Positions 6,184-46,804 of a stretch of 58,777 nt of DNA are shown one piece after another. The notes under the pieces were generated by a model. It ran no database searches, had not been told where the DNA came from, and saw only the letters and a list, made by a program, of their open reading frames with translations. Position numbers and translations under genes: made by a program. The number at the start of each line of letters is the position of its first letter. The first letter of the stretch is position 1. Source of the DNA: Minisyncoccia bacterium. Lineage in GTDB: Bacteria > Patescibacteriota > Minisyncoccia > Phycocordibacterales > SBAW01. The stretch lies in assembly GCA_049997855.1 (NCBI GenBank), contig JBEKSG010000006.1:1-58777 (forward strand), given 5' to 3'.

Positions 6184-7145
6184 AAGGCGTACAAGATGCG
6201 GAGGTGGCAGGCAAACGCGTACTGCTACGTGTCGACTACAACGTGCCGATCGAAAACAGCGTCATCACGAATGACTCGCGCATGCGCGCAACGCTGCCCA
6301 CTATCAACCTTTTGCGCGACAAAGGCGTAGCAAAAATTATGTTGGCGACGCACCTGGGTCGCCCCGGTAGCAAAGTGGTCGAGGAGTTGCGCACGGCGCC
6401 GCTTTTTGCACACTTGCGGACGTTGACCGACACTGCCAACATCGATATGCTCGAAAATCTGCGTTTTAATCCCGGTGAGGAAAGCAATGACCCCGCGTTT
6501 GCGGCAGAGCTTGCCTCCAAAGCGGATATATTTGTCAACGACGCGTTTGCCGCGTCGCACCGGGCACATGCCTCGATAGTCGGCGTTGCAAAATTGTTGC
6601 CCGCATATGCCGGTTTGCTTATGGAGCGGGAAATAGAAAAACTCTCCGCGGCGCTTGCGCCGCAAAAACCCTCGCTTGCCATTGTGAGCGGCGTCAAACT
6701 CGAAACAAAATTGCCGCTTATCGAAGTATTGGCAAAGATATACGACAAACTATTAGTGGGCGGCGCTTTAGCTGATGAGTACAAAGGCGGAGCGGTAAAT
6801 GTGTTGTTACCGGAAGATGGCATTCCCGAACGCGAACATATGTTTGATATCGGACCAAAGACGCGCGCAGTGTGGGCGGCAGAGATACAAAAAGCTGCGT
6901 TTGTATTATGGAATGGTCCTGTAGGTATGTACGAAAAAAGTGAGTACAGTGGTGGCACTAATGCTTTAGCGGCGGCACTCGCAAGCTCCGGAGCGCACGC
7001 AGTAATTGGCGGCGGAGATACTGATGAAGCGCTCGCGAAAGTACATTTCGACCCGGAAAAAGTTTTTATCTCAACCGGCGGGGGCGCCACGCTCGAGTTT
7101 GTAGCGAATGGCACGTTGCCGGGCATTGAAGTGCTCAAAGTCTAA
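6174..7145 (+). CDS. pgk: Phosphoglycerate kinase (short, 323 aa)
   Basis: RVDYNVP, ATHLGRP, NDAFAASHRAH, GGGDT, STGGGA motifs. Overlaps the tpiA end by 10 nt. Confidence 0.88.
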   Translation: MQVKGVQDAEVAGKRVLLRVDYNVPIENSVITNDSRMRATLPTINLLRDKGVAKIMLATHLGRPGSKVVEELRTAPLFAHLRTLTDTANIDMLENLRFNPGEESNDPAFAAELASKADIFVNDAFAASHRAHASIVGVAKLLPAYAGLLMEREIEKLSAALAPQKPSLAIVSGVKLETKLPLIEVLAKIYDKLLVGGALADEYKGGAVNVLLPEDGIPEREHMFDIGPKTRAVWAAEIQKAAFVLWNGPVGMYEKSEYSGGTNALAAALASSGAHAVIGGGDTDEALAKVHFDPEKVFISTGGGATLEFVANGTLPGIEVLKV

Positions 7146-10006: not shown

Positions 10007-11482
10007 GTGAAAGTTGAGTACTCAGGCGGCGCTTTTTTGTACGTGTTGGCCGCCAGCTTGGCAGGTGGCGTTGCCTGTGCGCTCATTGTTACTATACCCA
10101 CCACCCTGCTTTTGGTGTGCGTAACGATTGCGCTTGCTCTCATGGTAGCAGGAGCTTTTGCGCGCACACGCGTGCTTTTGCTTATCGCAATCGCGCTTGT
10201 GGCATTCATGCTCGGTGTCGTGCGTGGAGATTTGTTTTTATATAAAGAGTCGCAAGAAAATGTTTCTGCATTTTTGGGCAAGGCAACGGTCGTTGGTACG
10301 ATTGTGAGCGACCCGGTGCAAAGTGGCGCGCACGTGCAAGCCGATGTGGCGGTGTCGTCGGTAAACGGCACTCCCGCACGCGGTACGCTCCTCGCATTTT
10401 TGTCGCCGTATGTAACTGCGGCTTACGGGCAGGAGGTGACGCTTGGCGGCACGCTCGAGGCTCCTGCGAGTTTTATCGGCGACAATGGCAACACGTTTGA
10501 TTACCCCAATTATTTGCGCGTACAGGGCGTCTCGATGTTGCTCATGCAAGCTCTGCTTGAGCAGGTCGCACCTGCAAAACTTTCGTTATATGGCGTGTTG
10601 TTTACCATCAAACACGTGTTTGAGGCATCAATTGCACGCACGCTGAGTGCGCCCACAGCGTCGCTCCTTGAAGGTGTTTTGCTTGGCGAACGCCGCGGGT
10701 TGCCGCAAGATATGACCGACGCGTTTGTCGCGGCGGGGCTCATACACATCGTGATACTCTCCGGCTACAGCATGTCGGTAGTGTCGGAGGGGATTTTACG
10801 AGGGCTCGGATTTTTGCCGCGCCGCTTTCAAATGCTGTGTGCCGCGCTTTGCATGATGCTGTTTGTGATCATGACCGGCGCCGCTCCCACCACCGTGCGC
10901 GCGTGCATGATGGCGCTCGTAGCGCTCGTGGCGCGCTATCTGCATCGCACCGCGCTTGCCCTCCGGAGCCTTGCTGCCGTCGCGGTGGCGATGGTGCTGT
11001 GGAATCCGCCGCTCATCCTCGGCGACGCATCATTTTTTACCAGCGTGCTCGCAACGTTTGGGCTCATCGTGTTTGCGCCGAGTATTGAAAAAATGTTGCG
11101 ATTGATACCGCAACGTTTTGAGATGCGCTCAATTATCACTTCTACCATTGCGGTGCAGATTTTTGCACTGCCCGCGCTTTTGTACTTTACGGGCAATCTC
11201 TCGTATCTCTCGGTACCGGCCAATCTTTTGGTGTTGCCGCTTTTGCCGTTAGTAATGATTGCCGGATTTGTGACCGGCATCTGCAGTTTTATCAACACGG
11301 CGCTCGCGTTTGTGCCTGCGCTCATTGTCACTTTGCTGTTGCAATGGATAGTGCTCGTCGCGCATACCGTGCAAACGTTGCCGTTTGGGTTTGCAACATT
11401 TGCCGCGTTCCCGCTCTGGCTTGCGTTGCTAATGTACGTGCCACTAACGGCATCTGCTGTGTATTTGTTAAAGCAGAAATAA
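10007..11482 (+). CDS. comEC: ComEC/Rec2-family competence membrane protein (no MBL domain)
   Basis: 491-aa polytopic ORF; GLIHIVILSGYSMSVV and MTGAAPTTVRA blocks typical of the Competence domain. Confidence 0.8.
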   Translation: MKVEYSGGAFLYVLAASLAGGVACALIVTIPTTLLLVCVTIALALMVAGAFARTRVLLLIAIALVAFMLGVVRGDLFLYKESQENVSAFLGKATVVGTIVSDPVQSGAHVQADVAVSSVNGTPARGTLLAFLSPYVTAAYGQEVTLGGTLEAPASFIGDNGNTFDYPNYLRVQGVSMLLMQALLEQVAPAKLSLYGVLFTIKHVFEASIARTLSAPTASLLEGVLLGERRGLPQDMTDAFVAAGLIHIVILSGYSMSVVSEGILRGLGFLPRRFQMLCAALCMMLFVIMTGAAPTTVRACMMALVALVARYLHRTALALRSLAAVAVAMVLWNPPLILGDASFFTSVLATFGLIVFAPSIEKMLRLIPQRFEMRSIITSTIAVQIFALPALLYFTGNLSYLSVPANLLVLPLLPLVMIAGFVTGICSFINTALAFVPALIVTLLLQWIVLVAHTVQTLPFGFATFAAFPLWLALLMYVPLTASAVYLLKQK

Positions 11483-13573: not shown

Positions 13574-13611
13574 CCCCGACGATTAGTCGGAGTCCCGACC
13601 AAAGCATCGGG
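13574..13611 (+). repeat. Double-hairpin CCCGAC repeat, copy 1 (intergenic)
   Basis: CCCCGACgattaGTCGGag TCCCGAccaaagcaTCGGGA; the same architecture occurs at 24579, 34169 and 44269. Confidence 0.8.
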
Positions 13612-21450: not shown

Positions 21451-22176
21451 ATGGAAACAAAAATTACCAAAACCAAAAAAGCTTCTGTCGCTAAGCCAAG
21501 CGCGGCTAACCGCATGGAGGCAACGCTTTTTAACGCGCAAGGCGAGCAGGCTGGCACCTTTGTATTGCCGGAAAATCTCTTTGGTTTGCCGTGGAACGCC
21601 GACCTCGTGCATCAGGTGGTGCAAGGCATGCAAGCCAACGCACGCGGAGGCAATGCACACACCAAAGACCGCGGCGAGGTGCGCGGCGGTGGTCGCAAGC
21701 CGTGGCAGCAAAAGGGCACCGGCCGCGCGCGCCAAGGCTCTATCCGCTCGCCCCTTTGGAAGGGAGGCGGCGTGACGCACGGTCCTCGCAACGAAAAGGA
21801 CTACAGCCAAAAAATCAACCGCCAGGCGCGCCAAAAGGCGTTGCTCGTGGTGCTCTCGCGCAAACTCAAAGATGGCGAGGTTATTTTGATAGACAAACTT
21901 AACTTTGCCGAGCCTAAGGCCAAAGAGGCAAAGCGCGTGATAGACGCCTTTGGTAAAATCGGCATGCGCGCATTAAAAAAGAAGAACGCCGCTTTGATGG
22001 CACTCCCTGCAATGCACGCTCCGACCTTTAAGAGCTTTGGCAATTTTGGCAACGTCGAAATGGTTGAGGCACGCAACTTAAACCCGCTTTCGGTGCTCTC
22101 GAGCAAATACCTCGTGTTGGTAGATCCGGCGGCGGTTATCGAGACGCTCTCAAAAAAGCGCGTGGTTAAAAAATAA
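21451..22176 (+). CDS. rplD: 50S ribosomal protein L4
   Basis: 241-aa ORF; RGGGRKPWQQKGTGRARQGSIRSPLW. Confidence 0.95.
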   Translation: METKITKTKKASVAKPSAANRMEATLFNAQGEQAGTFVLPENLFGLPWNADLVHQVVQGMQANARGGNAHTKDRGEVRGGGRKPWQQKGTGRARQGSIRSPLWKGGGVTHGPRNEKDYSQKINRQARQKALLVVLSRKLKDGEVILIDKLNFAEPKAKEAKRVIDAFGKIGMRALKKKNAALMALPAMHAPTFKSFGNFGNVEMVEARNLNPLSVLSSKYLVLVDPAAVIETLSKKRVVKK

Positions 22177-22185
22177 TAATTTTTT

Positions 22186-22473
22186 ATGGAAAAGCATACC
22201 GGAAAAATTTTACACTCGCCACGCATCACCGAAAAAGGCGCATACCTCTCAGGACATGGAGCCTATGTATTTAACGTAGCAAAGAGTGTAAGCAAAAAAG
22301 AGATAGCCAATGCCGTGCAAGCGCTCTACAAAGTGACGCCGCGCAAAATTGCCGTGCTCGCGGTGCCTTCGAGCCGGGTTAAAACGCGCAACACCAACCG
22401 CACGGGTGCCACCGCCAAGGGTCGCAAGGCGTATGTGTATCTTAAAAAGGGCGAAACCATCGAACTCGTATAA
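22186..22473 (+). CDS. rplW: 50S ribosomal protein L23
   Basis: 95-aa ORF; typical L23 pattern and operon position. Confidence 0.9.
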   Translation: MEKHTGKILHSPRITEKGAYLSGHGAYVFNVAKSVSKKEIANAVQALYKVTPRKIAVLAVPSSRVKTRNTNRTGATAKGRKAYVYLKKGETIELV

Positions 22474-22494
22474 TCCTTCGACTACGCTCAGGAT
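22473..22494 (+). repeat. CCTTCGAC-N-GCTCAGG motif, copy 1
   Basis: atCCTTCGACtacGCTCAGGat; related copies at 28723 (+) and 35026 (-). Confidence 0.6.
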
Positions 22495-22512
22495 AAAAAA
22501 TAAGAATTTTTT

Positions 22513-23361
22513 ATGAAACAATATAAACCATACACCAAATCGCGCCGCCACATGACCTCAATCTCCTTTCGCAAGGTGTTGACCGCGGGAGAGCCACACA
22601 AAGCACTCACGTGGGGCGGGAAGCGCGGATTTGGCCGCAACAACGCGGGCCGCATCACCATGCGCCACCAAGGCGGCGGCCACAAACGTCTCCTTCGCGA
22701 TGTCGACTTTGGCTACAAAAAACAGGTGCCTGCCCGCATCGAGACTGTTGAGTACGATCCAAACCGCTCGGGCTTTATCGGTCTTTTGATATATAAAGAC
22801 GGCGAGCGCCGCTATGCGCTTTTGCCCAAGAGCGCCAAGGTGGGCGACACCATCGAGACCTCTGCCACTGCAGCTGTTATGCCGGGTAACCGCATGCCGC
22901 TTGCCAAAGTGCCGGTTGGCGCCTTTGTTTACAATGTTGAAATCAAGCCGGGCAACGGCGGCAAACTTGGCCGCTCTGCCGGCACGCATATCGAGGTTGT
23001 TGCACAGGACAACGGCTACACCGACCTCAAAATGCCTTCAAGCGAGGTGCGCAAAGTGCTCGACACCTGCTGGGCAACTTTGGGCGAGGTCTCCAATGAC
23101 GAGCATCACCTGGTGGTGATAGGCAAGGCAGGCCGCTCGCGCTGGATGGGTATCCGCCCAACGGTGCGCGGTACGGCAATGAATCCGGTTGACCATCCGC
23201 ACGGCGGCGGCGAGGGCAGGCAAGGCCGCGGTTTGCGCCGCGCAAAGAGCGCGTGGGGCAAACCAACAGGCAAAGGCCAAAAAACCCGCACGCCTAAAAA
23301 GTATTCCAACCACCTCATCGTGTCTCGCCGCAAAGTAGGCAAGCGCGGAACACAACAGTAG
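22513..23361 (+). CDS. rplB: 50S ribosomal protein L2
   Basis: 282-aa ORF; GGGHKR and NPVDHPHGGGEG. Confidence 0.97.
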   Translation: MKQYKPYTKSRRHMTSISFRKVLTAGEPHKALTWGGKRGFGRNNAGRITMRHQGGGHKRLLRDVDFGYKKQVPARIETVEYDPNRSGFIGLLIYKDGERRYALLPKSAKVGDTIETSATAAVMPGNRMPLAKVPVGAFVYNVEIKPGNGGKLGRSAGTHIEVVAQDNGYTDLKMPSSEVRKVLDTCWATLGEVSNDEHHLVVIGKAGRSRWMGIRPTVRGTAMNPVDHPHGGGEGRQGRGLRRAKSAWGKPTGKGQKTRTPKKYSNHLIVSRRKVGKRGTQQ

Positions 23362-23882: not shown

Positions 23883-23895
23883 TGTGATGCCAATA

Positions 23896-23922
23896 TACGA
23901 ATGTATGCGAATGATACGAATA
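23896..23922 (+). repeat. Array of three (T/G)(A/G)CGAAT(G/A) boxes with about 10-nt period
   Basis: tacgaatg / tgcgaatg / tacgaata in the rpsS-rplV spacer. Confidence 0.6.
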
Positions 23923-23928
23923 TAAAAA

Positions 23929-24289: not shown

Positions 24290-24997
24290 ATGTCTAAAGT
24301 CGTACACCCATTTGCACACCGCATCGGCATCCTCCGCGATTGGAGGCATCGTTGGTTTGCCGTCGGTGCGCAGTATCAGGCTTATCTCAAGGCAGACATT
24401 CTTTTGCGCGAATATTTGCAAAAAGAGATGCGCGGCATGTATGTGGGCGGCATCGACATCGAGCGCGGCGCGGGTACCTTGCGCGTTATCATTAAGACCT
24501 CGCGTCCGGGCGTTATCATCGGCCGCAGCGGCGAGGGCTCAATCAAACTCAAAAATAAAATTGCCGCTTTTCTTCAATCCCGACGCATAGTCGGGACCCC
24601 GACCAAAGCGTCGGGGAACAATCCAGTAGTAATGCCGGAGATAAAACTCGACATCGAAGAAATCCGCTCACCCGAGAGCAATGCGGCTATTGTGGCCTAC
24701 ATGGTCGCCGAGAGTTTGGAAAAGCGCCTGGCGTTTCGCCGCGTGCTCAAGCAAACGATAGAGAAGGTGATGGCCAACCGCGACGTGCTTGGCGTGCGCA
24801 TTCAAATCAGCGGCATGCTCGGCGGCGGTACCATGTCGCGCACCGAGCAGCTCAAAAAAGGCCGCATCCCGCTCCAAACCTTCCGCTCCGACATCGACTT
24901 TGCGCGCGAGAGGGCCAACCTTCCGCTTGGGGTCATCGGCATCAAGGTGTGGATATACAAAGGCGAAATCTTTTCCATTAGTGGAAAAGATAAGTAA
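24290..24997 (+). CDS. rpsC: 30S ribosomal protein S3 (with internal repeat-derived insertion)
   Basis: KVHPFAHRIGI, KH domain (RPGVIIGRSGEG), and C-domain (RTEQLKKGRIPLQTFRSDIDF). Confidence 0.96.
   Translation: MSKVVHPFAHRIGILRDWRHRWFAVGAQYQAYLKADILLREYLQKEMRGMYVGGIDIERGAGTLRVIIKTSRPGVIIGRSGEGSIKLKNKIAAFLQSRRIVGTPTKASGNNPVVMPEIKLDIEEIRSPESNAAIVAYMVAESLEKRLAFRRVLKQTIEKVMANRDVLGVRIQISGMLGGGTMSRTEQLKKGRIPLQTFRSDIDFARERANLPLGVIGIKVWIYKGEIFSISGKDK
24579..24616 (+). repeat. Double-hairpin CCCGAC repeat, copy 2 (in frame inside rpsC)
   Basis: CCCGACgcataGTCGGGa CCCCGACcaaagcGTCGGGG, translated as RRIVGTPTKASG. Confidence 0.8.
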
Positions 24998-26344: not shown

Positions 26345-26599
26345 ATGAACACATTGCATATAAAAAAAGGAGACAGCGTTACGGTGCTCTCCGGTAACGA
26401 AAAAGGGAAGAGCGGTAAAGTGCTCAAGGTGTTCCCTAAGCTCAGTATGGTGCTCGTGGAAGGTGTCGGCATGCGCAAAAAGCATCAGCGGGGCCGCCGC
26501 GAGGGCCAAAGGGGCCAAATCATCGACAAGCTTTTTCCTATCCACGCGAGCAATGTTGTCCTCGCGCAAGCGAAGAAACCGAGTAAAAAGAAAAATTAA
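26345..26599 (+). CDS. rplX: 50S ribosomal protein L24
   Basis: 84-aa ORF; KKGDSVTVLSGNEKGKSGKV (KOW motif). Confidence 0.93.
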   Translation: MNTLHIKKGDSVTVLSGNEKGKSGKVLKVFPKLSMVLVEGVGMRKKHQRGRREGQRGQIIDKLFPIHASNVVLAQAKKPSKKKN

Positions 26600-26609
26600 T
26601 AGAAAGAAA

Positions 26610-26654
26610 GCCGCGCCAAAAGGACGATTGCACGGCATGATTTCGACAAAATCA
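26610..26654 (+). repeat. 45-nt two-hairpin leader element, copy 1 (upstream of rplE)
   Basis: gccgcgccaaaaggacgattgcacggcatgatttcgacaaaatca; near-identical copies at 33358 (+) and 37713 (-). Confidence 0.9.
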
Positions 26655-26660
26655 ACTACT

Positions 26661-27215
26661 ATGCCTAAATTAATTCAAGAACAACAGCAAACCGCGTTTG
26701 ACGCGCTCAAGGAACAGTTTAGGTGGACTAACCGCATGCAGGTGCCCAAGCTCCAAAAGGTGGTTATCTCCGTGGGCGTGGGCAAAATGGCCAAAGACAA
26801 AAACAAAGTCGAGTTGGTAGCCGACCGTTTGGCAAAAATCACCGGCCAAAAGCCGGCCGAGCGCGGCGCTAAAAAATCTATCGCTACCTACAAAACGCGC
26901 ATCGGCGACAGGGTGGGCTATCAAATTACGCTCCGCGGTAAGCGCATGCAAGATTTCCTCAATCGTTTGATACACATTGCTCTGCCTCGCACCAAAGATT
27001 TTAAGGGCATCTCACAGAGCGGCATCGATGCGATGGGCAACTACACGCTCGGTATTAAAGAGCACATCGTCTTCCCCGAGACAGCCGACGAGGACATCAA
27101 AGACGTCTTTGGCATGGCCGCAACGGTTGTCACATCAGCCAAAAACCCCAAAGAAGCAAAAGCATATCTAACTCACCTAGGCTTTCCGTTTAAGAAGGAC
27201 GTTTCGCAAAAATAA
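26661..27215 (+). CDS. rplE: 50S ribosomal protein L5
   Basis: The MPKLIQEQ... start is chosen by comparison with typical L5 N-termini; MQVPKLQKVVISVGVG block. The ORF is open from 26463. Confidence 0.93.
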   Translation: MPKLIQEQQQTAFDALKEQFRWTNRMQVPKLQKVVISVGVGKMAKDKNKVELVADRLAKITGQKPAERGAKKSIATYKTRIGDRVGYQITLRGKRMQDFLNRLIHIALPRTKDFKGISQSGIDAMGNYTLGIKEHIVFPETADEDIKDVFGMAATVVTSAKNPKEAKAYLTHLGFPFKKDVSQK

Positions 27216-27252
27216 CGTTATAGATTGGTATATAAGGACATTATTTCTTCCG

Positions 27253-27280
27253 TTGATTTTTTACATAGCGGGTATATCAT
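27253..27280 (+). promoter_or_regulatory. Sigma-70-like promoter (TTGATT-N16-TATCAT)
   Basis: Hexamers at 27253-27258 and 27275-27280, directly after the rplE stop. Confidence 0.45.
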
Positions 27281-27474
27281 AGCTAGGTACACCCGGAAAG
27301 GTTCGGAGAAGCTGCGCTCTTCCTGCAGTTTCTTTTGTAAGTCGCGGGAAAGGAAGGGGCAGTCGGGTCCGTGACTGCATCTGGCGTATTGAGCCTACTC
27401 TGTTACGGGTGTACCTCGGCTGTCCCTTCCTTTCTTACAAACTGGACCCGATAGGACCGGCATAGCGTACACCT
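27281..27474 (+). ncRNA. Highly structured leader/ncRNA of about 190 nt, unclassified (riboswitch-like)
   Basis: Long-range pairings: 27286-27295 with 27406-27415; 27333-27362 with 27420-27441; hairpins at 27307-27333 and 27359-27378. The 7-mer GTACACC recurs at 27467-27473, next to the ATG. Confidence 0.5.
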
Positions 27475-27843
27475 ATGTCTGCACCCCTTGAAACACCCCA
27501 ACGTAAATTAGTTTTTATAGCCCATCCCATCAGAGGGGATGTGGCTGGAAATATGACAAAAGTGTTTGCTATTTGCGAGCAGGTACACAAAGAAGGACAC
27601 ACCCCCATAGCACCCTACCTTATAGTACCTACGCATTCGAATGCCGGAGTAATTGAAAACCGGGAACTTGGAGTGTGGGCGAACCTTACTACTTTTGAGC
27701 GTGGCTATGTTGACGAACTTTGGCTCTATGGCGACGGAATTTCAGAAGGAATGAAAATAGAGGTGACTCTAGCGAAGAAATTAGGAATCCCCGTAGTTGC
27801 AAAATCGGAAGGGACAAAGAGGGACCTCGTAACATTAATCTAA
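27475..27843 (+). CDS. Small protein resembling the DUF4406 / nucleoside 2-deoxyribosyltransferase-like fold
   Basis: 122-aa ORF with the pattern VFIAHPIRGD...DELWLYGDGISEGMKIEVTLAKKLGIPV. Assigned from memory of the family pattern only. Confidence 0.45.
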   Translation: MSAPLETPQRKLVFIAHPIRGDVAGNMTKVFAICEQVHKEGHTPIAPYLIVPTHSNAGVIENRELGVWANLTTFERGYVDELWLYGDGISEGMKIEVTLAKKLGIPVVAKSEGTKRDLVTLI

Positions 27844-27896
27844 TTTTCAGCCACAATATTTATAATCGGTTTTAGATTGTAGAGGAGGAAACTTCG

Positions 27897-28103
27897 ATGC
27901 CCCTAGTTGTTGTTGCACAGAGCGCCCTTGCGGCCCTTATCGCAATGCTTAGTGTCAGGTCCTCGGTTCGAGCGACGGCGAGCCGCTATCTTGACCTGTT
28001 GTACGAAGAACCGCCCGCGGCGGACCCTGCATTCCTCAGAGAGGAATGCAGGAGGCAAGCCAGAGAGCACGCGAAAGAAAGAATGTGGTCACATATCATC
28101 TGA
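27897..28103 (+). CDS. Small hypothetical protein with hydrophobic N-terminus
   Basis: 68-aa ORF preceded by GAGGAGGA, 8 nt from the ATG, and followed by a terminator. Confidence 0.5.
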   Translation: MPLVVVAQSALAALIAMLSVRSSVRATASRYLDLLYEEPPAADPAFLREECRRQAREHAKERMWSHII

Positions 28104-28116
28104 CGCCCCACATTAT

Positions 28117-28150
28117 CCCGACTTTGCAAGTCGGGCTTTTCTTTTTCTTT
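28117..28150 (+). terminator. Rho-independent terminator
   Basis: 8-bp stem CCCGACTT/AAGTCGGG followed by CTTTTCTTTTTC. Confidence 0.7.
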
Positions 28151-28253
28151 CCTCCACTTTGCCGCCACTTCCTCAATTAAAGCCACGCAAACATTGCCCC
28201 GGGTTCGGAGCAGACAAAAAAATGAGGCAGTTGTTACTACCCCGCTCTCGTGT

Positions 28254-28529
28254 TTATAGCCGACAAGGCTGAATGGTGGTGAGGCTTATTCCGCCTCCCA
28301 TAGGCTCACTGCCCAGGTCCCGAACAGCATTTGCCCGAAGATTCTGGTGCAGCACCCGCTCCCTCATCTTCGCGTGCGCCTCACGACGCATCTGGTAAGA
28401 TCCTTCAAAGTGCAAAAATATAATTGAAGGTCCGACAGGCTCGCCTTCATCTTGTCCAACCCATGAGAAGTTCATGGGGCCTTTCCTCTGGTAGATGAGC
28501 AGAAGAAAAATCTTCATTAATCCAACCAT
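28254..28529 (-). CDS. Small hypothetical protein
   Basis: 91-aa ORF preceded on the minus strand by AAGGGAGGA, 8 nt from the ATG. Confidence 0.5.
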   Translation of the reverse strand: MVGLMKIFLLLIYQRKGPMNFSWVGQDEGEPVGPSIIFLHFEGSYQMRREAHAKMRERVLHQNLRANAVRDLGSEPMGGGISLTTIQPCRL

Positions 28530-28722
28530 TAAAGTGTCCTCCCTTACAGACCAACTTCCTATAGAAGTATGTGTCTGAAAGAGAGCCTTGTCAAGAAAAT
28601 GTAATGGTCGTACAGAGGTTTGACTTCTATGGACTAATCGCTTATATTGCTCCTAGCCCCACAGGGCTCCTTTTTTCTGAACGGTGCCGCTTAGTCGCAA
28701 GGCGAGGCATACCATCGGAATC

Positions 28723-28743
28723 ACCCTTCGACAGGCTCAGGGT
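28723..28743 (+). repeat. CCTTCGAC-N-GCTCAGG motif, copy 2
   Basis: aCCCTTCGACagGCTCAGGGt, 50 nt upstream of rpsN. Confidence 0.6.
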
Positions 28744-28793
28744 AAATAACCCGGCTTGATTGGAGGAAAAGGCTATACATCTCTATTCTATCT

Positions 28794-28979
28794 ATGGCAA
28801 AAAAGTCAACAGTTGCACGCTCAAATCGCGCACCCAAGTTTAAATCTCGGGTAGTTAATCGTTGCTTCCGCTGCGGGCGCAAGCGCGCCTTTATGCGCGA
28901 CTTCGGCATGTGCCGCGCCTGCTTTAGGGAGGCGGCCAACGAAGGATTGATTCCCGGTGTGAGAAAGTCCTCTTGGTAA
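28794..28979 (+). CDS. rpsN: 30S ribosomal protein S14, type Z (zinc-binding)
   Basis: 61-aa ORF; CxxC...CxxC (CFRCGR...CRAC), ending in KSSW. Confidence 0.95.
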
Positions 28980-29407: not shown

Positions 29408-29455
29408 CGAATCCTACGAATCTTACGAGTAAATACGAATAGAATAACTGCGAAT
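29406..29455 (+). repeat. Array of five (A/T)(A/G)CGA(A/G)T boxes
   Basis: aacgaat, tacgaat, tacgagt, tacgaat, tgcgaat at 9-15-nt spacing in the rpsH-rplF spacer. Confidence 0.6.
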
Positions 29456-29470
29456 TTAAACAAATTATAT

Positions 29471-32788: not shown

Positions 32789-33358
32789 ATGGACACGCGC
32801 ACGTTTTTGATGATGGGGCGGCCTGGGTCGGGGAAAGGTACTCAAGCCAAGCTCTTGGCCGACACTATAGACGGCATTGTGTATTCCTCCGGCGCGCGCT
32901 TGCGCGAGATGGCGGCAAGCGGCAGCTACTTTGGCAGCCGCGCAAAAAAAGTCATGGATGCGGGAGATTTGATGCCGACATGGGTGTCGGAATATTTATT
33001 TGAGGAAGCTTTGCTCAAACTCGCGCCGACGGACACTATCGTATTTGAAGGCGCTTGCCGCATTTTGGATGAGACAAAACGCTTTCACGAAGTAGCCGCT
33101 TGGCTGGAGCGTCCCTACCTAGCCATATATCTTGATGCGCCGGAGGCAGCGCTCCGCGAGCGTCTCTTAAAGCGCACGAGCCTCGAGCAGCGCACCGACG
33201 ACAACGCGGCGATATTGCAGGAGCGATTTGATAAATTTACCGAACTCACCACAAAATCACTTGAATATTTTAAAAACGAAGGCACGTTGCTGAACATTAA
33301 CGGCAATCAGAGCGTCGAGCAGGTGCATGCCGATATTGTAAAAATGCTCAAATTATAG
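32789..33358 (+). CDS. adk: Adenylate kinase
   Basis: P-loop GRPGSGKGTQ. The start is set to the ATG at 32789, just after the secY stop. Confidence 0.92.
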   Translation: MDTRTFLMMGRPGSGKGTQAKLLADTIDGIVYSSGARLREMAASGSYFGSRAKKVMDAGDLMPTWVSEYLFEEALLKLAPTDTIVFEGACRILDETKRFHEVAAWLERPYLAIYLDAPEAALRERLLKRTSLEQRTDDNAAILQERFDKFTELTTKSLEYFKNEGTLLNINGNQSVEQVHADIVKMLKL

Positions 33359-33403
33359 CCGCGCCTTAAAGGACGATTGCGCGGCATGATTTCGGCAAAA
33401 TCA
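33358..33403 (+). repeat. 45-nt two-hairpin leader element, copy 2 (upstream of map)
   Basis: gccgcgccttaaaggacgattgcgcggcatgatttcggcaaaatca, ending 1 nt before the map ATG. Confidence 0.9.
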
Positions 33404-33404: not shown

Positions 33405-34166
33405 ATGATTGCAAAAACCGAACAGGAAATAAACAATTTGCGCCTGGGAGGCAAGCTTCTCTCCCATGCGCTGCGCGAACTTTCTGCACGGGCGGTGCCG
33501 GGCGTTACTACCGCCTCGCTTGATGTTGCTGCGGAGAAAATTATTCGCGAGGGTGGGGGAATGCCGGCATTTTTAAACTATCTGCCCGACGGCGCGGCGT
33601 ATCCTTTCCCCGCAACCCTGTGCGTGTCGATCAACGAGGAAGTGGTGCACGGCATCCCTTCGGCAGAGCGCGTGCTCAAAGGAGGCGACATGGTCTCGCT
33701 CGACCTTGGGCTCTCGTACAACGGCTATTTTGTCGACTCGGCTGTCACCGTGTGCGTGGGCGTGTGCGATGAGGTTGCGTACAAACTTATCAAAGCGACC
33801 AAAGAGGCAATGACGGCTGGCATCAAAGCTGCGCGCATGGGCGCACGCATAGGCGACATCAGTGCGGCCATAGAAGCTGTGGCTCAAAAATATAATTTTG
33901 CAGTGGTAAAAGATCTGGGCGGGCATGCGGTAGGCAAAGCCGTGCACGAAAAACCGTACATCCCCAACGAGGGTACCGCTGGCACGGGCCAGAAGCTGCC
34001 GGAGGGTTTGGTGATAGCAATCGAACCGATGTTCGCCGAAGGCAACGGCGCCATCACACTTATGAAAGACGAGTGGACCTATTGCATGCGCGACAAAAAA
34101 CGCTGTGCACACGTTGAGCATACCATCATTATCACCAACAAAGGTCCTGAGATTTTAACCGAATAG
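33405..34166 (+). CDS. map: Type I methionine aminopeptidase
   Basis: 253-aa ORF; VHGIP, D..D metal ligands, GHAVG, EPM, and HVEHTI motifs. Confidence 0.95.
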   Translation: MIAKTEQEINNLRLGGKLLSHALRELSARAVPGVTTASLDVAAEKIIREGGGMPAFLNYLPDGAAYPFPATLCVSINEEVVHGIPSAERVLKGGDMVSLDLGLSYNGYFVDSAVTVCVGVCDEVAYKLIKATKEAMTAGIKAARMGARIGDISAAIEAVAQKYNFAVVKDLGGHAVGKAVHEKPYIPNEGTAGTGQKLPEGLVIAIEPMFAEGNGAITLMKDEWTYCMRDKKRCAHVEHTIIITNKGPEILTE

Positions 34167-34168
34167 TG

Positions 34169-34207
34169 CCCCGACGCTCTGGTCGGGGAGCCGACCAACG
34201 CGTCGGC
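34169..34207 (+). repeat. Double-hairpin CCCGAC repeat, copy 3 (intergenic)
   Basis: CCCCGACgctctgGTCGGGGa GCCGACcaacgcGTCGGC. Confidence 0.75.
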
Positions 34208-35061: not shown

Positions 35062-35146
35062 GAAAGTGCAAATAATACTTTTTTAAAGCGCGCTCCGGGC
35101 CGCTAGGCCAAGTCTAACCCTTTAAAAAAGTATTATTTGCACTTTC
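35062..35146. repeat. Perfect 27-bp inverted repeat with 31-nt spacer, directly upstream of the beta-CASP gene
   Basis: GAAAGTGCAAATAATACTTTTTTAAAG (35062-35088) is the exact reverse complement of 35120-35146. The right arm ends 5 nt before the ATG at 35152. Confidence 0.9.
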
Positions 35147-35151
35147 CCACT

Positions 35152-36519
35152 ATGCAATCAACTGTCTACTTCTATGGCGCGGCGGGCTCGGTAACGGGCT
35201 CTAATTTTTTACTCGATACAGGCGCGAGCAAGATACTCATCGATTGCGGACTCTTCCAAGGCAAAAACGCAGGTGAGGAAAACAATTGGGCTAAGTTCCC
35301 GTTTGATGCTAAAGCAATACCGGTGTTGATAAACACGCACGCGCACATCGACCACATTGGCCGCATCCCACTTTTGGTAAAACGCGGCTTTAAGGGTCGC
35401 ATCATCTCCACCGAGGCAACGCGCGCGATAGCTTTGCCGCTTCTTCTCGACTGCATGAGCCTTCTCAAACACGATGCCGAGATATATGGCAAAGAGCCGC
35501 TGTATGACGAGCGTGACATCGACGCGGCCATGGCGCTGTGGGAGGGCATCCCGTATCATCAAAAAATCGATTTAGATGATAGCGTGCAGGTAGAGTTGTT
35601 AAACTCGGGACACATTTTAGGCTCGGCGATGGCAAAGTTTACTCGGGGGAGTAGCAATCTTGTTTTTACCGGCGATTTGGGTGGCGGCAACTCGCCGCTC
35701 CTGCCCCCGATAGATGATCTGACCGACGCCAACTATCTCGTGATGGAGAGTGTCTACGGCAACACAGTGCGGCCCGAGGAAGAGCAAAAGCACACGCGCG
35801 ACATGCTCGAAAATGTTATTGAAGAGAGCGTTGCGCGCTGCGGCACGCTACTTATACCCGCCTTTTCAACCGAGCGCACACAGGATTTGCTATTTGAAAT
35901 ACGCACCTTAATGGTGGAGCGGCGCGTGCCTTCGGTGCCGGTATACATCGACTCGCCCCTGGCAAAGCAAATGACCGAAGCATTTTTAGCGTACCCACAG
36001 TACTTTAGTGACGAGCTGCAACAACGCATCAAAAACGGCGAAAAAATTTTTGTTTTCCCCGAGATGCACATTGTAGAAGACGAGGATGAGTCGCGGCATC
36101 TGGGGAAAGAGCCCGGCCCTAACATCATTCTTGCCGGCTCGGGTATGAGCAATGGCGGCCGCGTTATAGGCCACGAGCGTCGTATTTTGTCCGACAAAAA
36201 ATCAACGCTCCTTATCGTGGGCTACCAGGCGGCAGGGAGCCTCGGCCGCAGGCTTGTTGAGGGTGCATCGCAGGTGGAAATTCATAAACAAAAAGTGCCC
36301 GTACACTGCCGCGTAGAGGCTATCTACGGCTACTCGGCGCACATGGATGGCGAGCAGCTGGTGGAGTTTGTAAACAAAACGAGGAGCACACTCAAAGAAG
36401 TGTTTGTGGTAATGGGCGAGCCTGTTGCTTCCGCAACACTGGTACAACATCTCCGCGACTACTTGAGCGTTAAAGCCATTGCGCCCGAAGCAGGAGAGAG
36501 CGCCACAATTGAGCTATAA
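35152..36519 (+). CDS. MBL-fold beta-CASP ribonuclease (RNase J/CPSF-like)
   Basis: YFYGAAGSVTGSN and HAHIDHIGRIP (HxHxDH) motifs plus beta-CASP and RNA-specificity regions. Confidence 0.85.
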   Translation: MQSTVYFYGAAGSVTGSNFLLDTGASKILIDCGLFQGKNAGEENNWAKFPFDAKAIPVLINTHAHIDHIGRIPLLVKRGFKGRIISTEATRAIALPLLLDCMSLLKHDAEIYGKEPLYDERDIDAAMALWEGIPYHQKIDLDDSVQVELLNSGHILGSAMAKFTRGSSNLVFTGDLGGGNSPLLPPIDDLTDANYLVMESVYGNTVRPEEEQKHTRDMLENVIEESVARCGTLLIPAFSTERTQDLLFEIRTLMVERRVPSVPVYIDSPLAKQMTEAFLAYPQYFSDELQQRIKNGEKIFVFPEMHIVEDEDESRHLGKEPGPNIILAGSGMSNGGRVIGHERRILSDKKSTLLIVGYQAAGSLGRRLVEGASQVEIHKQKVPVHCRVEAIYGYSAHMDGEQLVEFVNKTRSTLKEVFVVMGEPVASATLVQHLRDYLSVKAIAPEAGESATIEL

Positions 36520-36528: not shown

Positions 36529-37158
36529 ATGGATCCGATAAATAAAACTTCTACGGTTGACCCAAAAAATCTGCATCTCCACATCAAACTCGGCGTATCC
36601 GGCGCCGCCGAGACCGGCCACTGTGGCGTCGACGCATACGACAAAGGCATCGCGCTTGGCCGAGAGATTGCCGAGCACGGCGCCGTGTGCGTCACCGGCG
36701 CGACTACCGGCTTCCCGCTGTGGGTGGCAATGGGCGCCAAAACGGCAGGCGGATTTGTCATTGGATTTTCTCCCGCAAGTTCCGAAAAAGAGCATATCGA
36801 GCAGTACAATCTGCCGGTGGAGTATCACGACCTTATCGTGTACACCGGCTTTGGCTATCCGGGGCGCGACCTGATTTTTACGCGCTCGGTCGACGGCATG
36901 TTTTTTGGCTGCGGGCGCATCGGCACGATACACGAGTTTACGGTTGCCTTTGAGGACGCCAAGCCGATCGGCGTGTACGAGGGCGGATGGCCCACCGCCG
37001 ATGAAATAAAAAATATTTTAGCCAACGGTCACCGGCCCAATGACCACATACGCTTTGGTGCCGACCCAAAAGTGCTGGTGGAAGAGATACTCGCGCTGGT
37101 AAAAAAAGACCAAATAAATAGAGCCTCGTTTAGATTCGAAAACCCCGCAGAGACTTAA
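36529..37158 (+). CDS. TIGR00725/LOG-like (SLOG Rossmann) family protein
   Basis: 209-aa ORF; GVSGAA and VTGATTGFPLWVAMGAKTAGG..IGFSP pattern. Confidence 0.6.
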   Translation: MDPINKTSTVDPKNLHLHIKLGVSGAAETGHCGVDAYDKGIALGREIAEHGAVCVTGATTGFPLWVAMGAKTAGGFVIGFSPASSEKEHIEQYNLPVEYHDLIVYTGFGYPGRDLIFTRSVDGMFFGCGRIGTIHEFTVAFEDAKPIGVYEGGWPTADEIKNILANGHRPNDHIRFGADPKVLVEEILALVKKDQINRASFRFENPAET

Positions 37159-37508
37159 GAAACTTTGGAGACTACTCTCGCAAAGGTTTCGGGAGATTTT
37201 TGGGCGAGCTCGGCAAGCATTTTGCGATTCAGCAAGACGCCTTTTTTCTTGAGGGCGTCGATAAACTTGCTGTAGGAGAGTGTACCCTCGCCGACATTAT
37301 CGAGGCCGGCATTGATGCGGACGTTCCACAGCTTGCGAAAGTCGTTTTTCTTGTCGCGGCGGTGTGCAAAAGCCGACTTGCCGGCATGAAAGATCGCCTC
37401 TTTTGCGGCGCGCTCCTTTTTGCTGCGCGCAAAGCGATAGCCTTTGACCGTTTTAAGGACATTGTGGCGGCGCTTTAACGAATTAACTCCTCCTTTTACT
37501 CTGGACAT
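37155..37508 (-). CDS. rplT: 50S ribosomal protein L20
   Basis: MSRVKGGVNSLKRRHNVLK... start; 117 aa. Confidence 0.95.
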   Translation of the reverse strand: MSRVKGGVNSLKRRHNVLKTVKGYRFARSKKERAAKEAIFHAGKSAFAHRRDKKNDFRKLWNVRINAGLDNVGEGTLSYSKFIDALKKKGVLLNRKMLAELAQKSPETFARVVSKVS

Positions 37509-37511: not shown

Positions 37512-37712
37512 TTAATTCTTTGACTTTGCAGCCGTTTTAATAAAGCGCTGGGATACTTTGGGTGTCACCGAGTAGCTTTGTGTGCGGTTGGTACCCATTT
37601 GGGTGCGGCGGCTCTCCTTGGCGTTAAAATGGTTTTGGCCGGGATGGCGTGCGGTAAGCTTGCCATTTTTGCTGATTTTGAGGCGCTTGGTAAATGATTT
37701 GTTGGTTTTCAT
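37512..37712 (-). CDS. rpmI: 50S ribosomal protein L35
   Basis: 66-aa basic ORF in the canonical infC-rpmI-rplT order. Confidence 0.9.
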   Translation of the reverse strand: MKTNKSFTKRLKISKNGKLTARHPGQNHFNAKESRRTQMGTNRTQSYSVTPKVSQRFIKTAAKSKN

Positions 37713-41401: not shown

Positions 41402-41776
41402 TGGTGGAGATGGCGCGAGTTGAACGCGCGTGCAATGAAGTGTCGCAGAGAGCTTCTACCAGGTGTAGGACATTTTAATTTTCTTAGGCTCTTATGTTTA
41501 AAATGAGCAAAATCATTTTGAGCCGCAGATTGCAAGTTTCGGCAAATGGTCGAATCAACCCCACTCGCTATATCCTGTTTTATAACATCCTACATCCGCG
41601 ATCAGGCCACGCGGAGAAGATGCGAAGTCCTTAGGCTAATGCGTAAGAGACCTCGTTCGCCGAGAAATACGGCGATGCAACTGACTTTGCAGTTATGGTT
41701 ACCGGATTTTTAAGAAGGTCCGGACTTCTACCTCGCACTCGGTGCAAAGGCTTCATTGTCTAGGCCCGGCATCCCC
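41402..41776 (-). ncRNA. ssrA: Transfer-messenger RNA (tmRNA)
   Basis: The 5' GGGGAUG pairs with the 3' CAUCUCC-ACCA (G3:U pair). T-arm GCGCG-UUCAACU-CGCGC. Tag reading frame GCA AAG UCA GUU GCA UCG CCG UAU UUC UCG GCG AAC GAG GUC UCU UAC GCA UUA GCC UAA (..SYALA*). Lies 4 nt downstream of smpB. Confidence 0.9.
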
Positions 41777-42309: not shown

Positions 42310-44268
42310 ATGCCAAATCCTAACGCTAAACCAGGCAAACCGGGGAAGGGAGGCAAGGGCTCTAAGATGCCGCCGATGCCAAACGGCGACTCCTTTTGGA
42401 TAAACCTCGCCACCTCGGTTGTTCTGCTCCTCCTTTTGGCGGGGGCCTATGCCTACTTCGAAACGAGCAATAAGCCTGCACCCGCCACCATCTCTATCTC
42501 ACAAGTGGCGCAGGATATCGAAGCGGGCAAAGTGTCCGGCATCAGCGTCAACGGCGATGATCTCAATGTGCTCTACAACGATGCGTCTTCGACGCAAAAA
42601 GTTTCCAAAAAAGAGCCCGACACCGCGCTCACGCAAACGCTTTTTAATTACGGCGTTACGGGCGCCGAGCTCAACAAGGTAACCATTACTATCGCAAGCC
42701 AAAGCGGCTGGGAGTTTTGGTTCCAGATGCTCGCGCCGTTTGCCGCACCGCTCCTCCTCATTGCATTTTTTGTCTGGTATCTCTCACGGCAGGTGCGCGG
42801 CGCGGGGATGCAAGCGTTTTCGTTCGGGCAAAGCAAGCCGCGATTGATTGATCCCAACGATGTTGCGTCGCGAGTTACCTTTAAAGATGTGGCGGGCGCC
42901 AAGGAGGCCAAAGAGGAATTGCTCGAAATTGTCGACTTCTTAAAAAATCCCAAAAAGTTCTTGGACATCGGTGCGCGCATACCCAAAGGCATCTTGCTTA
43001 TGGGTGCGCCCGGCACCGGCAAAACTTTACTCGCGCGCGCGGTGGCGGGCGAGGCGGGCGTGCCGTTTTTTAGCATCTCCGGCTCGGAGTTTGTCGAGAT
43101 GTTTGTCGGCGTCGGCGCCAGCCGCGTGCGCGATCTTTTCCTCACCGCTAAAAAAGCCGCACCGGCGATTATTTTTGTCGACGAAATAGACGCGGTGGGT
43201 CGCGTGCGCGGCACCGGCGTCGGCGGCGGCAACGACGAGCGCGAGCAGACCCTCAATCAAATCTTGGTGGAGATGGATGGCTTTGAGCCGAATGAAAAGG
43301 TGATTGTCATGGCGGCCACCAACCGCCCCGACGTTTTGGACCCTGCCTTATTGCGCCCGGGGCGTTTTGACCGGCGCGTAGTGATAGAGCTTCCGGACCG
43401 GGCCGATCGTTTGGAAATTTTAAAAATACACTCGCGCAAAAAGCCGTTTGCCGAGGATGTAAACCTCGAGGTGGTGGCCGAGCGCACGCCGGGCTTCTCC
43501 GGCGCCGATCTCTTTAGCCTTATGAACGAGGGCGCAATCTTGGCCGCGCGCGAAAATCGCAAAACGGTCGCGCAATATGATTTAATCCGCAGCATCGAAA
43601 AGGTCATGCTCGGTCCGGAGCGCAAGAGCCATGTGCTCAACAAAAAAGAAAAAGAGATAACCGCCTACCACGAGGCGGGGCATGCACTCGTAGCATCGCT
43701 TTTGCCGCACGCCGACCCGGTGCACAAGATATCTATCATCAGCCGCGGTCGCGCCGCGGGCTACACGCTCAAATTACCGTTTGAGGATAGGCGTATGCAG
43801 GGCAAAAAAGAATTTTTGGACGACATTGCCATGAGCCTTGGCGGTTATGTGGCCGAAAGAGAGGTGTTTGGCGACGTCACCACCGGCCCGAGCAGCGATT
43901 TGCAAATGCTGACCGCGCTTGCGCGCAACATGGTAACGCGCTGGGGCATGAGCGATAAGATGGGTACCGTTGCGCTCGAAGGCGAGGGCGGTCACGCACT
44001 TTTTGGCGCTGGCGTTGAAGGCAGCCCGTATTCCGAAAAGATTTCCGGCGAGATAGATGGTGAGGTAAAGCGCATCGTCGACGAGGCATACAAAAAAGCA
44101 CTGGACATCATCACGATGCATCGCAAAGCGCTCGACGCGATTGCCAAGCGCCTCATCGCGGTGGAGACACTCGAGCGCGAGGAGTTTGAGCAAATTCTTG
44201 TCGTGCACGGCATAGCGCCAAAAAAGAGACAGGAGATAATAGAAGAGCCTCTCAATGTCAACTTTTAG
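42310..44268 (+). CDS. ftsH: ATP-dependent zinc metalloprotease FtsH
   Basis: 652-aa ORF; two TM segments, Walker A GAPGTGKT, second region of homology, and HEAGHA zinc site. Confidence 0.97.
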
Positions 44269-44288
44269 TCCCGACCAAAGCGTCGGGA
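44269..44288 (+). repeat. CCCGAC hairpin repeat, copy 4
   Basis: TCCCGACcaaagcGTCGGGA, immediately after the ftsH stop. A degenerate second hairpin follows. Confidence 0.7.
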
Positions 44289-46796: not shown

Positions 46797-46804
46797 CAAA
46801 ACAA

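Follow-up and report, generated by a model that had tools for sequence, protein, structure and literature searches.

The 58,777-nt contig JBEKSG010000006.1 of a Minisyncoccia bacterium (GenBank assembly GCA_049997855.1), referred to here in its whole length as the window, carries three copies of an element of about 45 nt that folds into two hairpins and stands directly before the start codons of rplE, map and rpmI. The element is a structured cis-acting RNA, as is apparent from compensatory substitutions and from its strand-specific placement. It is real and widespread in Paceibacteria, and it matches no Rfam family and no paper that was found. Tentatively, it is regarded here as a leader that positions translation initiation by its structure, independently of Shine–Dalgarno (SD) pairing.

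How the ribosomes of the candidate phyla radiation (CPR)/Patescibacteria choose their start codons is an open question, for which the element offers a concrete handle: it is compact, conserved and backed by covariation, and it marks where the most heavily used genes start. Repeated and apparently portable families that are almost confined to one functional position are rare, and this one possibly represents a mobile repeat turned into an expression signal. Its covariance model can be used to locate true starts and to flag highly expressed genes in metagenome-assembled genomes (MAGs) of Paceibacteria, and it is a candidate for inclusion in Rfam.

The element in the window

The copies, their parts and the genes they serve are as follows; bit scores of the copies are those of the covariance model.

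26610–26654 (+): element copy 1, between rplX (stop codon 26597–26599) and rplE (ATG 26661); 70.6 bits
26600–26609 (+): 5′ flank of copy 1, UAGAAAGAAA
26610–26636 (+): hairpin 1 of copy 1, GCCGCGC (26610–26616), 13-nt loop CAAAAGGACGAUU (26617–26629), GCACGGC (26630–26636)
26637 (+): linker A of copy 1
26638–26654 (+): hairpin 2 of copy 1, UGAUUU (26638–26643), loop CGACA (26644–26648), AAAUCA (26649–26654)
26655–26660 (+): spacer ACUACU ahead of the ATG
26661–27215 (+): rplE (uL5), gene served by copy 1; NCBIfam NF000585, 214.9 bits
33358–33403 (+): element copy 2, between adk and map (ATG 33405); 68.4 bits
33358–33385 (+): hairpin 1 of copy 2, with a 14-nt loop (33365–33378)
33386 (+): linker A of copy 2
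33387–33403 (+): hairpin 2 of copy 2
33405–34166 (+): map (type I methionyl aminopeptidase), gene served by copy 2; TIGR00500, 265 bits
37713–37758 (−): element copy 3, between infC (stop TAA 37770–37768) and rpmI (ATG 37712–37710); 72.7 bits
37758–37732 (−): hairpin 1 of copy 3
37731 (−): linker A of copy 3
37730–37714 (−): hairpin 2 of copy 3, CGAUUU (37730–37725) and AAAUCG (37719–37714)
37512–37712 (−): rpmI (bL35), gene served by copy 3; NCBIfam, with rplT next at 37155–37508

The presence of three copies at these positions, proposed earlier from the letters of the window, was borne out by a direct check of the sequence and by the covariance model, which run with filters off scores them at 68–73 bits. 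The next-best match in the 58.8 kb reaches only 11.6 bits and, because of this gap, the window is concluded to hold exactly three copies, none of them degenerate. A 44-nt consensus with at most three mismatches matches two of the copies, the third carrying a 1-nt insertion, and gives no match in 100 shuffles; a repeat search of the window likewise pairs all three copies with each other. A 258-kb JGI contig gave access to another 10 kb of this genome, in which no additional copy was present.

With their neighbours identified by NCBIfam (rplX/rplE, adk/map and infC/rpmI/rplT), each of the three copies is seen to span the interval from the preceding stop codon to the ATG of its gene (rplE, map or rpmI). 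Copy 2 shares its first G with the adk stop codon TAG (33356–33358) and ends 1 nt before the map ATG (33405). Copy 3 starts 9 nt past the infC stop codon, abuts the rpmI ATG (37712) and is unchanged in three other assemblies of the same organism; its second hairpin is a compensated C-G variant. In stem 1 of copy 1, A26632 creates a C·A mismatch, which is a derived mutation since a close relative (L154) with the same insertion has a G at this place.

Distribution and placement at start codons

Two pattern scans of 185,579 species-representative genomes yielded nine further copies, in MAGs of Paceibacteria and Adlerbacteria, and a pattern scan of metagenomes matched at least 120 contigs. With a covariance model (R1, cut-off 31 bits) at least 120 copies were gathered, 108 of them distinct, about 117 lying beyond the three of the window. 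A copy was counted as standing at a start when an ATG 0–8 nt past the element opened an open reading frame (ORF) of at least 40 amino acids or one running off the contig. On the same strand, this is the case for 93 of the 108 distinct copies listed (86%), compared to 4.8% of random positions in the same loci. The original prediction that the element lies directly before start codons, oriented like the gene, thus extends well beyond the window; a family scattered regardless of starts or orientation is not what this census shows.

The orientation bias toward the downstream gene is near-absolute, and in most copies the AUG follows hairpin 2 after 0–2 nt. Counted from the AAAUC, the spacing is 2 nt in 49 copies, 1 nt in 16, 4 nt in 10 and 3 nt in 8, the commonest value of 2 nt corresponding to 1 nt after the 6-bp hairpin 2. 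The 5′ side is unconstrained, with the nearest upstream stop codon on the same strand preceding the element by anything between 1 and about 280 nt; for 45 of the 108 copies this distance is at most 20 nt, and these copies fill an intercistronic gap. The remaining 15 copies are mostly situated at contig ends, ahead of very short ORFs, or before spacers of 12–31 nt (L130, L166, L177, L136). Genuine exceptions are few (L145, L101, L124 and L176, the last with no start nearby). On contig L184, a long inverted duplication carries two copies, 1854–1896 (−) and 6300–6341 (+), and an ORF of 11 codons comes after each.

RNA structure and covariation

Hairpin 1 has a 7-bp GC stem, extended to 8 bp by an added C-G pair in the 16 copies with a linker G, and a loop of 13–14 nt, YWWAAGGACGRUU, with GGACGRUU as its core. 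A single linker nucleotide separates it from hairpin 2, an A/U-rich stem of 6 bp (UGAUUU/AAAUCA) with a loop of 4–5 nt. The two-hairpin architecture had been described correctly in the original prediction, in which hairpin 2 was one pair too short, with 5 bp. In the aligned copies, both stems covary. Over 103 distinct sequences, pair 2 of stem 1 is U-A in 64, C-G in 35 and something else in 4, while pair 7 is C-G in 88 and U-A in 10. The closing pair of hairpin 2 is U-A in 99 and C-G in 3, and its second pair is G-C in 98, G-U in 3 and A-U in 1. Double changes with less than 5% non-pairs occur at 4 of the 13 pairs. Altogether, 98.4% of cells are paired, and 42 cells show double changes compared to 17.4 ± 2.8 in shuffles (0 of 500); a covariation score of 0.131 likewise exceeds the 0.084 ± 0.005 of shuffled alignments (0 of 500). 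In controls with slid partners, only 16–56% remained paired. Mutual information over all column pairs revealed the two stems and no pseudoknot or other long-range pairing.

These compensatory changes in both stems support the earlier view that conservation acts on RNA and not on a peptide. The 'internal AUG' is formed by the linker A and the U-G of hairpin 2, since the three ACG variants, among them the rpmI copy of the window, are exactly the three that carry the matching A-to-G change (AAAUCG); the change from ATG to ACG is therefore half of a U-A to C-G swap. A role of this AUG as the start of an upstream ORF was rejected, as its frame relative to the gene varies and its U and G are stem nucleotides. 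Furthermore, stem variants that differ within one contig (L143) argue against a DNA operator.

Hairpin 1, GC-rich even in AT-rich hosts, is predicted to be stable (about −11 kcal/mol) and appears in the minimum free energy fold of 79 of 90 copies in their context. Hairpin 2 is predicted to be weak, with a mean of about −1.4 kcal/mol, and pairs the A-rich tract at −8 to −2 rather than the AUG, the mean predicted accessibility of which is 0.53. With regard to an RNA thermometer of the fourU/ROSE type, the gene set is not heat-shock specific. The loop of hairpin 1 is near-invariant across genomes whose uL5 proteins are only about 60–90% identical, and the type of loop 2 is clade-specific. Six copies were found by the model alone, without any pattern. 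They keep the architecture, with loop 1 reading GGAC in three and AGAC, AGAU or UCGAC in the others (L137, L192 and L051); among these six, the conserved core is GAC rather than GGA.

Genes served and transcription of the element

Downstream genes were typed by Pfam scans of 87 distinct proteins and by reading of their N-termini. About 24 are ribosomal-protein genes (S4, S7, S12, S18, S19, S20, L2, L3, L5, L7/L12, L11, L23, L24 and L35), and translation factors are represented by EF-Tu (several times), EF-Ts (tsf) and the ribosome recycling factor. Chaperones and proteins of secretion and transcription (GroEL, DnaK, FKBP isomerases, SecE, NusG and KhpA) are served as well, as are glutaredoxin, AtpD, GyrB, CarB and many small signal-peptide or pilin-like proteins. 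The set is strongly enriched for abundant products, mostly highly expressed, and does not form one functional class. Some sites are common to several organisms: rpmI (the window, L106 and L155), tuf (five contigs) and rpsS (four). On contig L127, at 5303–6462, rplK with an element ahead of it is followed by a 241-aa ORF without Pfam match in place of rplA, which is consistent with the uL1-less Paceibacteria of the literature.

For L143, which has three copies, metatranscriptome contigs span the upstream gene, the element and the downstream gene (X28 record 16, X29 record 21), indicating that the element is transcribed within mRNAs; copies belonging to other loci are present in two more RNA contigs. 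Ends of RNA contigs near elements cannot be read as 5′ ends, since repeats cause breaks in the assembly.

Scans of the window and 14 loci at Rfam 15 gathering thresholds returned only tRNA and tmRNA, and a permissive scan of 26560–26700 gave one chance-level match, to the trpB motif (15 bits where 59 are needed, E = 6.3). A full-text literature search retrieved no paper describing the motif. Several other identities were rejected. An intrinsic terminator does not agree with a loop of 13–14 nt and a tail AUGAUUU, and consensus scans call none at the three copies; for a sigma-70 promoter, they give only a chance-level match over copy 1. Upstream of 105 copies there is no −10 box at a fixed position, but only A/T richness, an A at −6 and UAG/UAA-like triplets at −4 to −2. 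A phage origin was dismissed as IMG/VR contigs contain no copy. The element is not a miniature inverted-repeat transposable element (MITE) either: its ends are not inverted repeats, no direct repeat flanks copy 1 or L010, and empty orthologous spacers are unrelated in sequence. Scatter of the kind known from repetitive extragenic palindromic (REP) sequences and bacterial interspersed mosaic elements (BIMEs) was likewise rejected, given the 86% of the 108 copies at a co-oriented ATG-ORF and the lack of inverted pairs except at the duplicated locus L184. The 5′ flank is A/U-rich, mostly ending in UAGC or reading GAAAGAAA, and has no invariant GTAG-type tetranucleotide; genes for RAYT were not included in the searches.

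Start codons in the host

Ribosomes of CPR/Patescibacteria are reduced and often lack uL1, bS21 and the anti-SD motif, and the genomes they translate are free of SD sequences. In the window, none of the 44 confidently placed starts has an SD core (GGAG, GAGG or AGGA) at −20 to −4, compared to 12.4% of random 17-mers, which agrees with the earlier statement that this genome largely lacks SDs. The 20 nt upstream of the starts are 70% A+T, compared to 48% overall, and the genome uses a generic start context AAAAWWAU-AUG, the A-rich tract of which is resembled by the 3′ arm of hairpin 2, AAAUCA. The AAAGGA that had been proposed as an SD-like run is indeed present in loop 1 of the window copies. 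That it acts as an SD is weakened by its distance of 31–37 nt from the ATG, which is too great, and by the lack of SDs at all other genes of the window; moreover, a GGA is missing from three of the six pattern-free copies. An anti-SD motif is undetected in about half of the Parcubacteria, a group overlapping with those that lack uL1, and helix 26 of their 16S rRNA is unusually conserved (PMC9297842). Paceibacteria are also described as devoid of rplA (PMC12641178).

Many genes of the window that are preceded by an intergenic region have a TATAAT-like box ending 6–9 nt before the start, for example those starting at 38987 (+), 51898 (−), 36529 (+) and 56023 (+), as well as at 7484 (−), 9247 (+) and 42242 (−). 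Since these boxes lie 6–9 nt before the ATG of promoter-proximal genes, leaderless mRNAs are suggested, and these are probably the default for the first genes of transcription units in this host. Within the ribosomal-protein operon, hairpins before starts are a general habit: two near-identical spacers, GGWUAAAAAAUAAKAAUUUUUUAUG, place an A6/U6 hairpin at the ATG of rplW (22164–22198) and rplB (22491–22525), and other GC hairpins precede rpsC, rpsQ and rplD. Motifs of the type (A/G)CGAAU occur two to three per spacer before rplV (23884–23928) and rplF (29430–29470), and also after the element copies L176 and L196, both on metagenome contigs.

Gain and loss between relatives

The window DNA occurs in runs of peat metagenomes, and the genome is an Adlerbacteria-like member of the Paceibacteria (CPR). 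The closest uL5 proteins, 91% and then 75–84% identical, are from MAGs of Candidatus Paceibacterota and Adlerbacteria. In the closest relative, SMAG_U7764 (91%), the rplX-rplE spacer is 9 nt long and has no element, and a copy is located between rplW and rplB, where the window has the unrelated A6/U6 hairpin. The element has therefore been gained and lost like a portable cassette. Empty rplX-rplE spacers are also found in RNA contigs of relatives (about 85–93% identity, one RNA run). Copies before unrelated genes share a 5′ flank, GAAAGAA(A/G) in the clade of the window and AAUUAGC in another. The flank of copy 1 thus recurs before grx (L001), tuf (L002, L100 and L195) and nusG (L006), which implies that the unit that was duplicated reaches past hairpin 1 into the flank. 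When 1.15 Mb of related r-protein operon regions were searched with a second covariance model, based on 106 copies, no additional member was detected; the family thus has sharp limits, its most divergent member (L051) scoring 42 bits. The element is thus subject to rapid gain and loss, yet, judging by the aligned copies, its sequence is held nearly constant across hosts.

Proposed mechanism and alternative explanations

That this RNA acts on the downstream translation start is suggested by the spacing, which is tight toward the AUG and loose upstream, together with the strand bias, the abundance of the gene products, the covariation and the SD-less host. From the observed fold, position and gene association we infer a docking partner and a direction of effect. 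The element would be a leader cassette that works in cis as RNA and measures about 45 nt, or 50–55 nt with the shared 5′ flank; it would be co-transcribed with the downstream gene and act on the translation start of that gene in a lineage that does not use SD pairing. Hairpin 1 may serve as an anchor or docking surface for a conserved trans partner, either the small subunit itself (protein or rRNA) or a factor on it. Hairpin 2 may be a low-energy gate, which on opening would let the A-rich tract enter the ribosome together with the AUG; with this gate open, about 20 nt would separate hairpin 1 from the AUG downstream, so that the hairpin would stand where the mRNA exit channel opens. Initiation without an SD would thereby be efficient and accurately positioned on chosen cistrons, most of them highly expressed, whether these lie next to a promoter or inside an operon. 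The cassette would have spread to new starts by duplication or recombination and would be readily lost, as an optional plug-in rather than a part of any one gene. A bolder version of this leader, possible but rather speculative, is that of a ribosome-tethering or docking RNA, functionally comparable to the viral termination upstream ribosome-binding site (TURBS) or to elements of the internal-ribosome-entry-site kind. It would replace SD pairing on privileged mRNAs in the anti-SD-poor, uL1-less Paceibacteria and propagate as a mobile start cassette, domesticated before high-output genes.

Several observations weigh against such a leader. A hairpin abutting the AUG normally inhibits initiation rather than promoting it. 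For the ribosome contact that we infer, searches for antisense to the loop, for CsrA and Hfq and for a matching 16S tail identified no trans partner. The complement AAYCGTCC occurs outside elements 69 times in 1.9 Mb, where about 116 are expected by chance, and is thus not enriched; tblastn with two CsrA sequences and Hfq detected no homologue in the same 1.9 Mb, a partial sample of many genomes. A 16S tail of the form GTCGTAACAAGGTA-N18-38-YCGTCCT gave two unrelated matches in 185,579 genomes (Bdellovibrionota and Firmicutes), which is a weak test because MAGs often lack 16S 3′ ends and the fetched loci contain no 16S. Only three of 80 related r-protein operon regions (1.15 Mb) have a copy (L010, L087 and L051), and close relatives show plain A/U-rich spacers at the same junctions, so that the element is dispensable per gene. 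The copies of L166, L177 and L136 are 24–31 nt from an ATG, that of L145 (1619–1661, +) precedes a putative tRNA-Pro(CGG) by 8 nt, L101 has two tandem copies without an ORF (10243–10285 and 10315–10358, −), and a degenerate copy in L124 (577–619, −) splits trmD into two ORFs. Finally, the sampling patterns fixed part of loop 1 and of hairpin 2, namely AGGACG, part of the 3′ arm of stem 1 and GAUUUCG, and conservation at these places is therefore inflated.

The three roles raised in the original prediction, a shared operator, structure-assisted initiation and a REP-like element with a site preference, are all still live. As a shared translational operator, which seems unlikely, the element would have its loop 1 bound by one protein or small RNA that stabilises hairpin 2 and co-regulates growth genes. 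Its regulon would comprise ribosomal proteins, elongation factors, chaperones and secretion, and it would replace gene-specific r-protein autoregulatory leaders. The near-invariance of GGACGRUU across distant genomes is as expected of a binding site, and hairpin 2, too weak alone to block initiation at −1.4 kcal/mol, resembles a ligand-stabilised gate. The element also occupies junctions that are classical control points elsewhere, such as the starts of rplE (S8) and rpmI (L20), rplK (L1), rpsL/rpsG, the surroundings of rpsD, rpsT and tsf. However, the searches in 1.9 Mb provided no candidate regulator, neither a CsrA or Hfq homologue nor an enrichment of loop-complementary sequences, close relatives do not share one gene set (rplE is served in the window and rplB in its closest relative), as would be odd for a fixed regulon, and many served genes encode small membrane or secreted proteins and enzymes unlinked to translation. 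It is highly improbable that the loop presents a canonical SD. In this reading AAAGGA would pair with the 16S anti-SD, and folding of the hairpins would bring it effectively closer to the AUG, on the model of the split ribosome-binding site of phage T4 gene 38. Most copies do contain AAAGGA or AAGGA, AAAGGACGAUU resembles on inspection a perfect complement of the canonical 16S tail, AAAGGAGGUGAUC, and opposite a U it would make no difference whether GGACG(A/G)UU has A or G. Against this stand the absence of SD cores from the 44 genes of the window, the 31–37 nt to the AUG, the AGAC, AGAU or UCGAC in half of the pattern-free copies (L137, L192 and L051) and the mere two unrelated matches in the 16S-tail scan. 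A signal at the DNA level, whether promoter, intrinsic terminator or palindromic operator bound by a transcription factor, is scarcely credible: although stem 1 is a 7-bp inverted repeat and an A/T-rich, −10-like sequence is often found upstream, promoter and terminator calls from consensus scans do not rise above the chance level at the three copies, and no −10 box has a fixed position. A 13–14-nt loop with only three U after stem 1 does not fit such signals either, and the G-U pairs, the compensatory changes within one genome and the gene-tied orientation indicate RNA.

Two other explanations are both distinctly doubtful. In a processing or stability module, a cut upstream, e.g., by RNase Y, would leave hairpin 1 to block 5′-to-3′ decay by an RNase J-like enzyme, so that the downstream cistron outlives its neighbours and accumulates. 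The host indeed has an RNase Y gene a short way past the left border of the window (L215, 10940–12469) and, beside infC-rpmI-rplT at 35137–36519 (+), one for a beta-CASP/metallo-beta-lactamase RNase (RNase J-like, 460 aa), and CPR bacteria are reported to retain RNase J, RNase III and PNPase (PMC12641178). The stable, GC-rich hairpin 1 even in AT-rich hosts, the 45 of 108 copies that are intercistronic, the abundance of the served products and one RNA contig of depth 10 that begins about 13 nt upstream of a copy point in the same direction. Nevertheless, a stabiliser needs neither a fixed 0–2 nt to the AUG nor hairpin 2 nor a conserved loop, the RNA contigs X28 record 16 and X29 record 21 read through from the upstream gene, and contig ends at elements are confounded by repeat-induced assembly breaks. 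Alternatively, a selfish element resembling REP sequences, Rickettsia palindromic elements (RPEs) or MITEs and mobilised in trans, without host function, might be tolerated before starts while selection purges other insertions from these very compact genomes, its compact fold and own A-rich tract making such insertions tolerable. The REP-like idea gains some weight from the gain and loss between close relatives, seen in the patchy distribution and in sites that are filled in one and empty in the other. Also in its favour, copies at unrelated genes share the 5′ flank GAAAGAAA or AAUUAGC, tandem copies are present in L101, a trmD-splitting copy in L124 and a pre-tRNA copy in L145, and mobile palindromes are active in this genome, as a second palindromic repeat is inserted in frame into its rpsC. 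Yet no target-site duplication, terminal inverted repeat or conserved target sequence is visible, and viral contigs hold no copy. Selection among neutral insertions does not explain the near-absolute orientation bias or the asymmetry between a tight ATG side and a loose stop side, and the conserved loop and compensatory stems across distant hosts imply purifying selection on the RNA. The second repeat of the window, moreover, is scattered in the manner of REP sequences and RPEs, whereas the start-codon element is not.

Comparison with known systems

The TURBS of caliciviruses holds the ribosome after termination on an upstream ORF, by pairing of its loop with helix 26 of the small-subunit rRNA. 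It shares with the element a stem with a short conserved loop at a fixed distance before the restart AUG, in an intercistronic position, and differs from it in being eukaryotic/viral and termination-dependent, while more than half of the element copies are not near an upstream stop. CsrA/RsmA sites have GGA in hairpin loops that overlap the ribosome-binding site, and there are usually two of them, one over the SD. The element similarly presents GGA in the loop of a short hairpin just before the start of many mRNAs of one genome, but CsrA requires a strict GGA, whereas here it is single, lost in some copies and part of a core that is better written GACGRUU.

Stabilisers of 5′ ends, such as those of Bacillus subtilis cggR-gapA (with RNase Y), ermC and aprE or the chloroplast PPR10 sites, also have a stable hairpin at the start of a downstream cistron of an operon, the common effect would be a higher output of selected cistrons, and enzymes of the RNase Y and RNase J type are found in hosts of the element as well. 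They have no fixed distance to the AUG, no second hairpin, no conserved loop and do not form a repeated family. REP/BIME, Rickettsia palindromic and Correia elements are, like the present family, short, structured and multi-copy, with near-identical copies that are patchily distributed, gained and lost, and co-transcribed. Those families are scattered, found at the 3′ ends of genes in both orientations and sometimes within genes, and some have terminal inverted repeats and target-site duplications or a GTAG box with RAYT; the start-codon element has no terminal inverted repeats or target-site duplications.

The leader of E. coli rpsA (S1) is reportedly an SD-independent structured initiation region, as said to have been described by Boni et al. 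in 2001 and Tchufistova et al. in 2003. Likenesses to the element are efficient initiation without a real SD (in rpsA), hairpins before the AUG with GGA in their loops, an A/U-rich surrounding of the start, and the recognition in rpsA of a fold rather than a linear motif. The rpsA leader is, however, specific to one gene, spans three hairpins over about 90 nt and belongs to SD-using gamma-proteobacteria, whereas the element measures 45 nt, is reused at dozens of unrelated genes, abuts the AUG and has no sequence similarity to it and no Rfam match.

Other features of the window

The second repeat family consists of two GC-rich hairpins, CCCGAC-N5-GTCGGG followed by CCCCGACCAAAGCGTCGGGG, and is present in four copies:

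13575–13611 (+): second repeat
24579–24615: second repeat, inside rpsC (24290–24997)
34158–34195 (−): second repeat
44251–44287 (+): second repeat, partial

In rpsC, the repeat is in frame and lengthens the protein by 13 residues, SRRIVGTPTKASG, which about 75 uS3 orthologues do not have. The remaining copies are situated just past gene ends in either orientation, resembling Rickettsia palindromic elements or REP sequences.

The spc-type operon is split between rplE and the S14 gene (28794–28979) by about 1.5 kb of non-ribosomal DNA (27216–28793), which holds a DUF7768 ORF (27475–27843), ORFs without a family match, and promoter-like and terminator-like sites. At the right end of the window, 50294–58777 is an integrated mobile element beside tRNA-Ser(GCU) (50299–50386). 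It encodes a large serine recombinase (50294–51898, −), a helix-turn-helix protein, a D12 N6-adenine methyltransferase (52165–53253), a Replic_Relax protein (55005–55880), an SDH-type protease and DUF6941. It is framed by two pairs of 160-nt inverted repeats of 99% identity (50381–50540/54456–54615 and 54776–54934/58619–58777), and the 258-kb contig of the same organism appears to end near 54.7 kb of the window. Lastly, the window contains a tmRNA gene (41402–41776, −) and a tRNA-Ile with the anticodon UAU (46725–46797), which is an uncommon bacterial way to read AUA.

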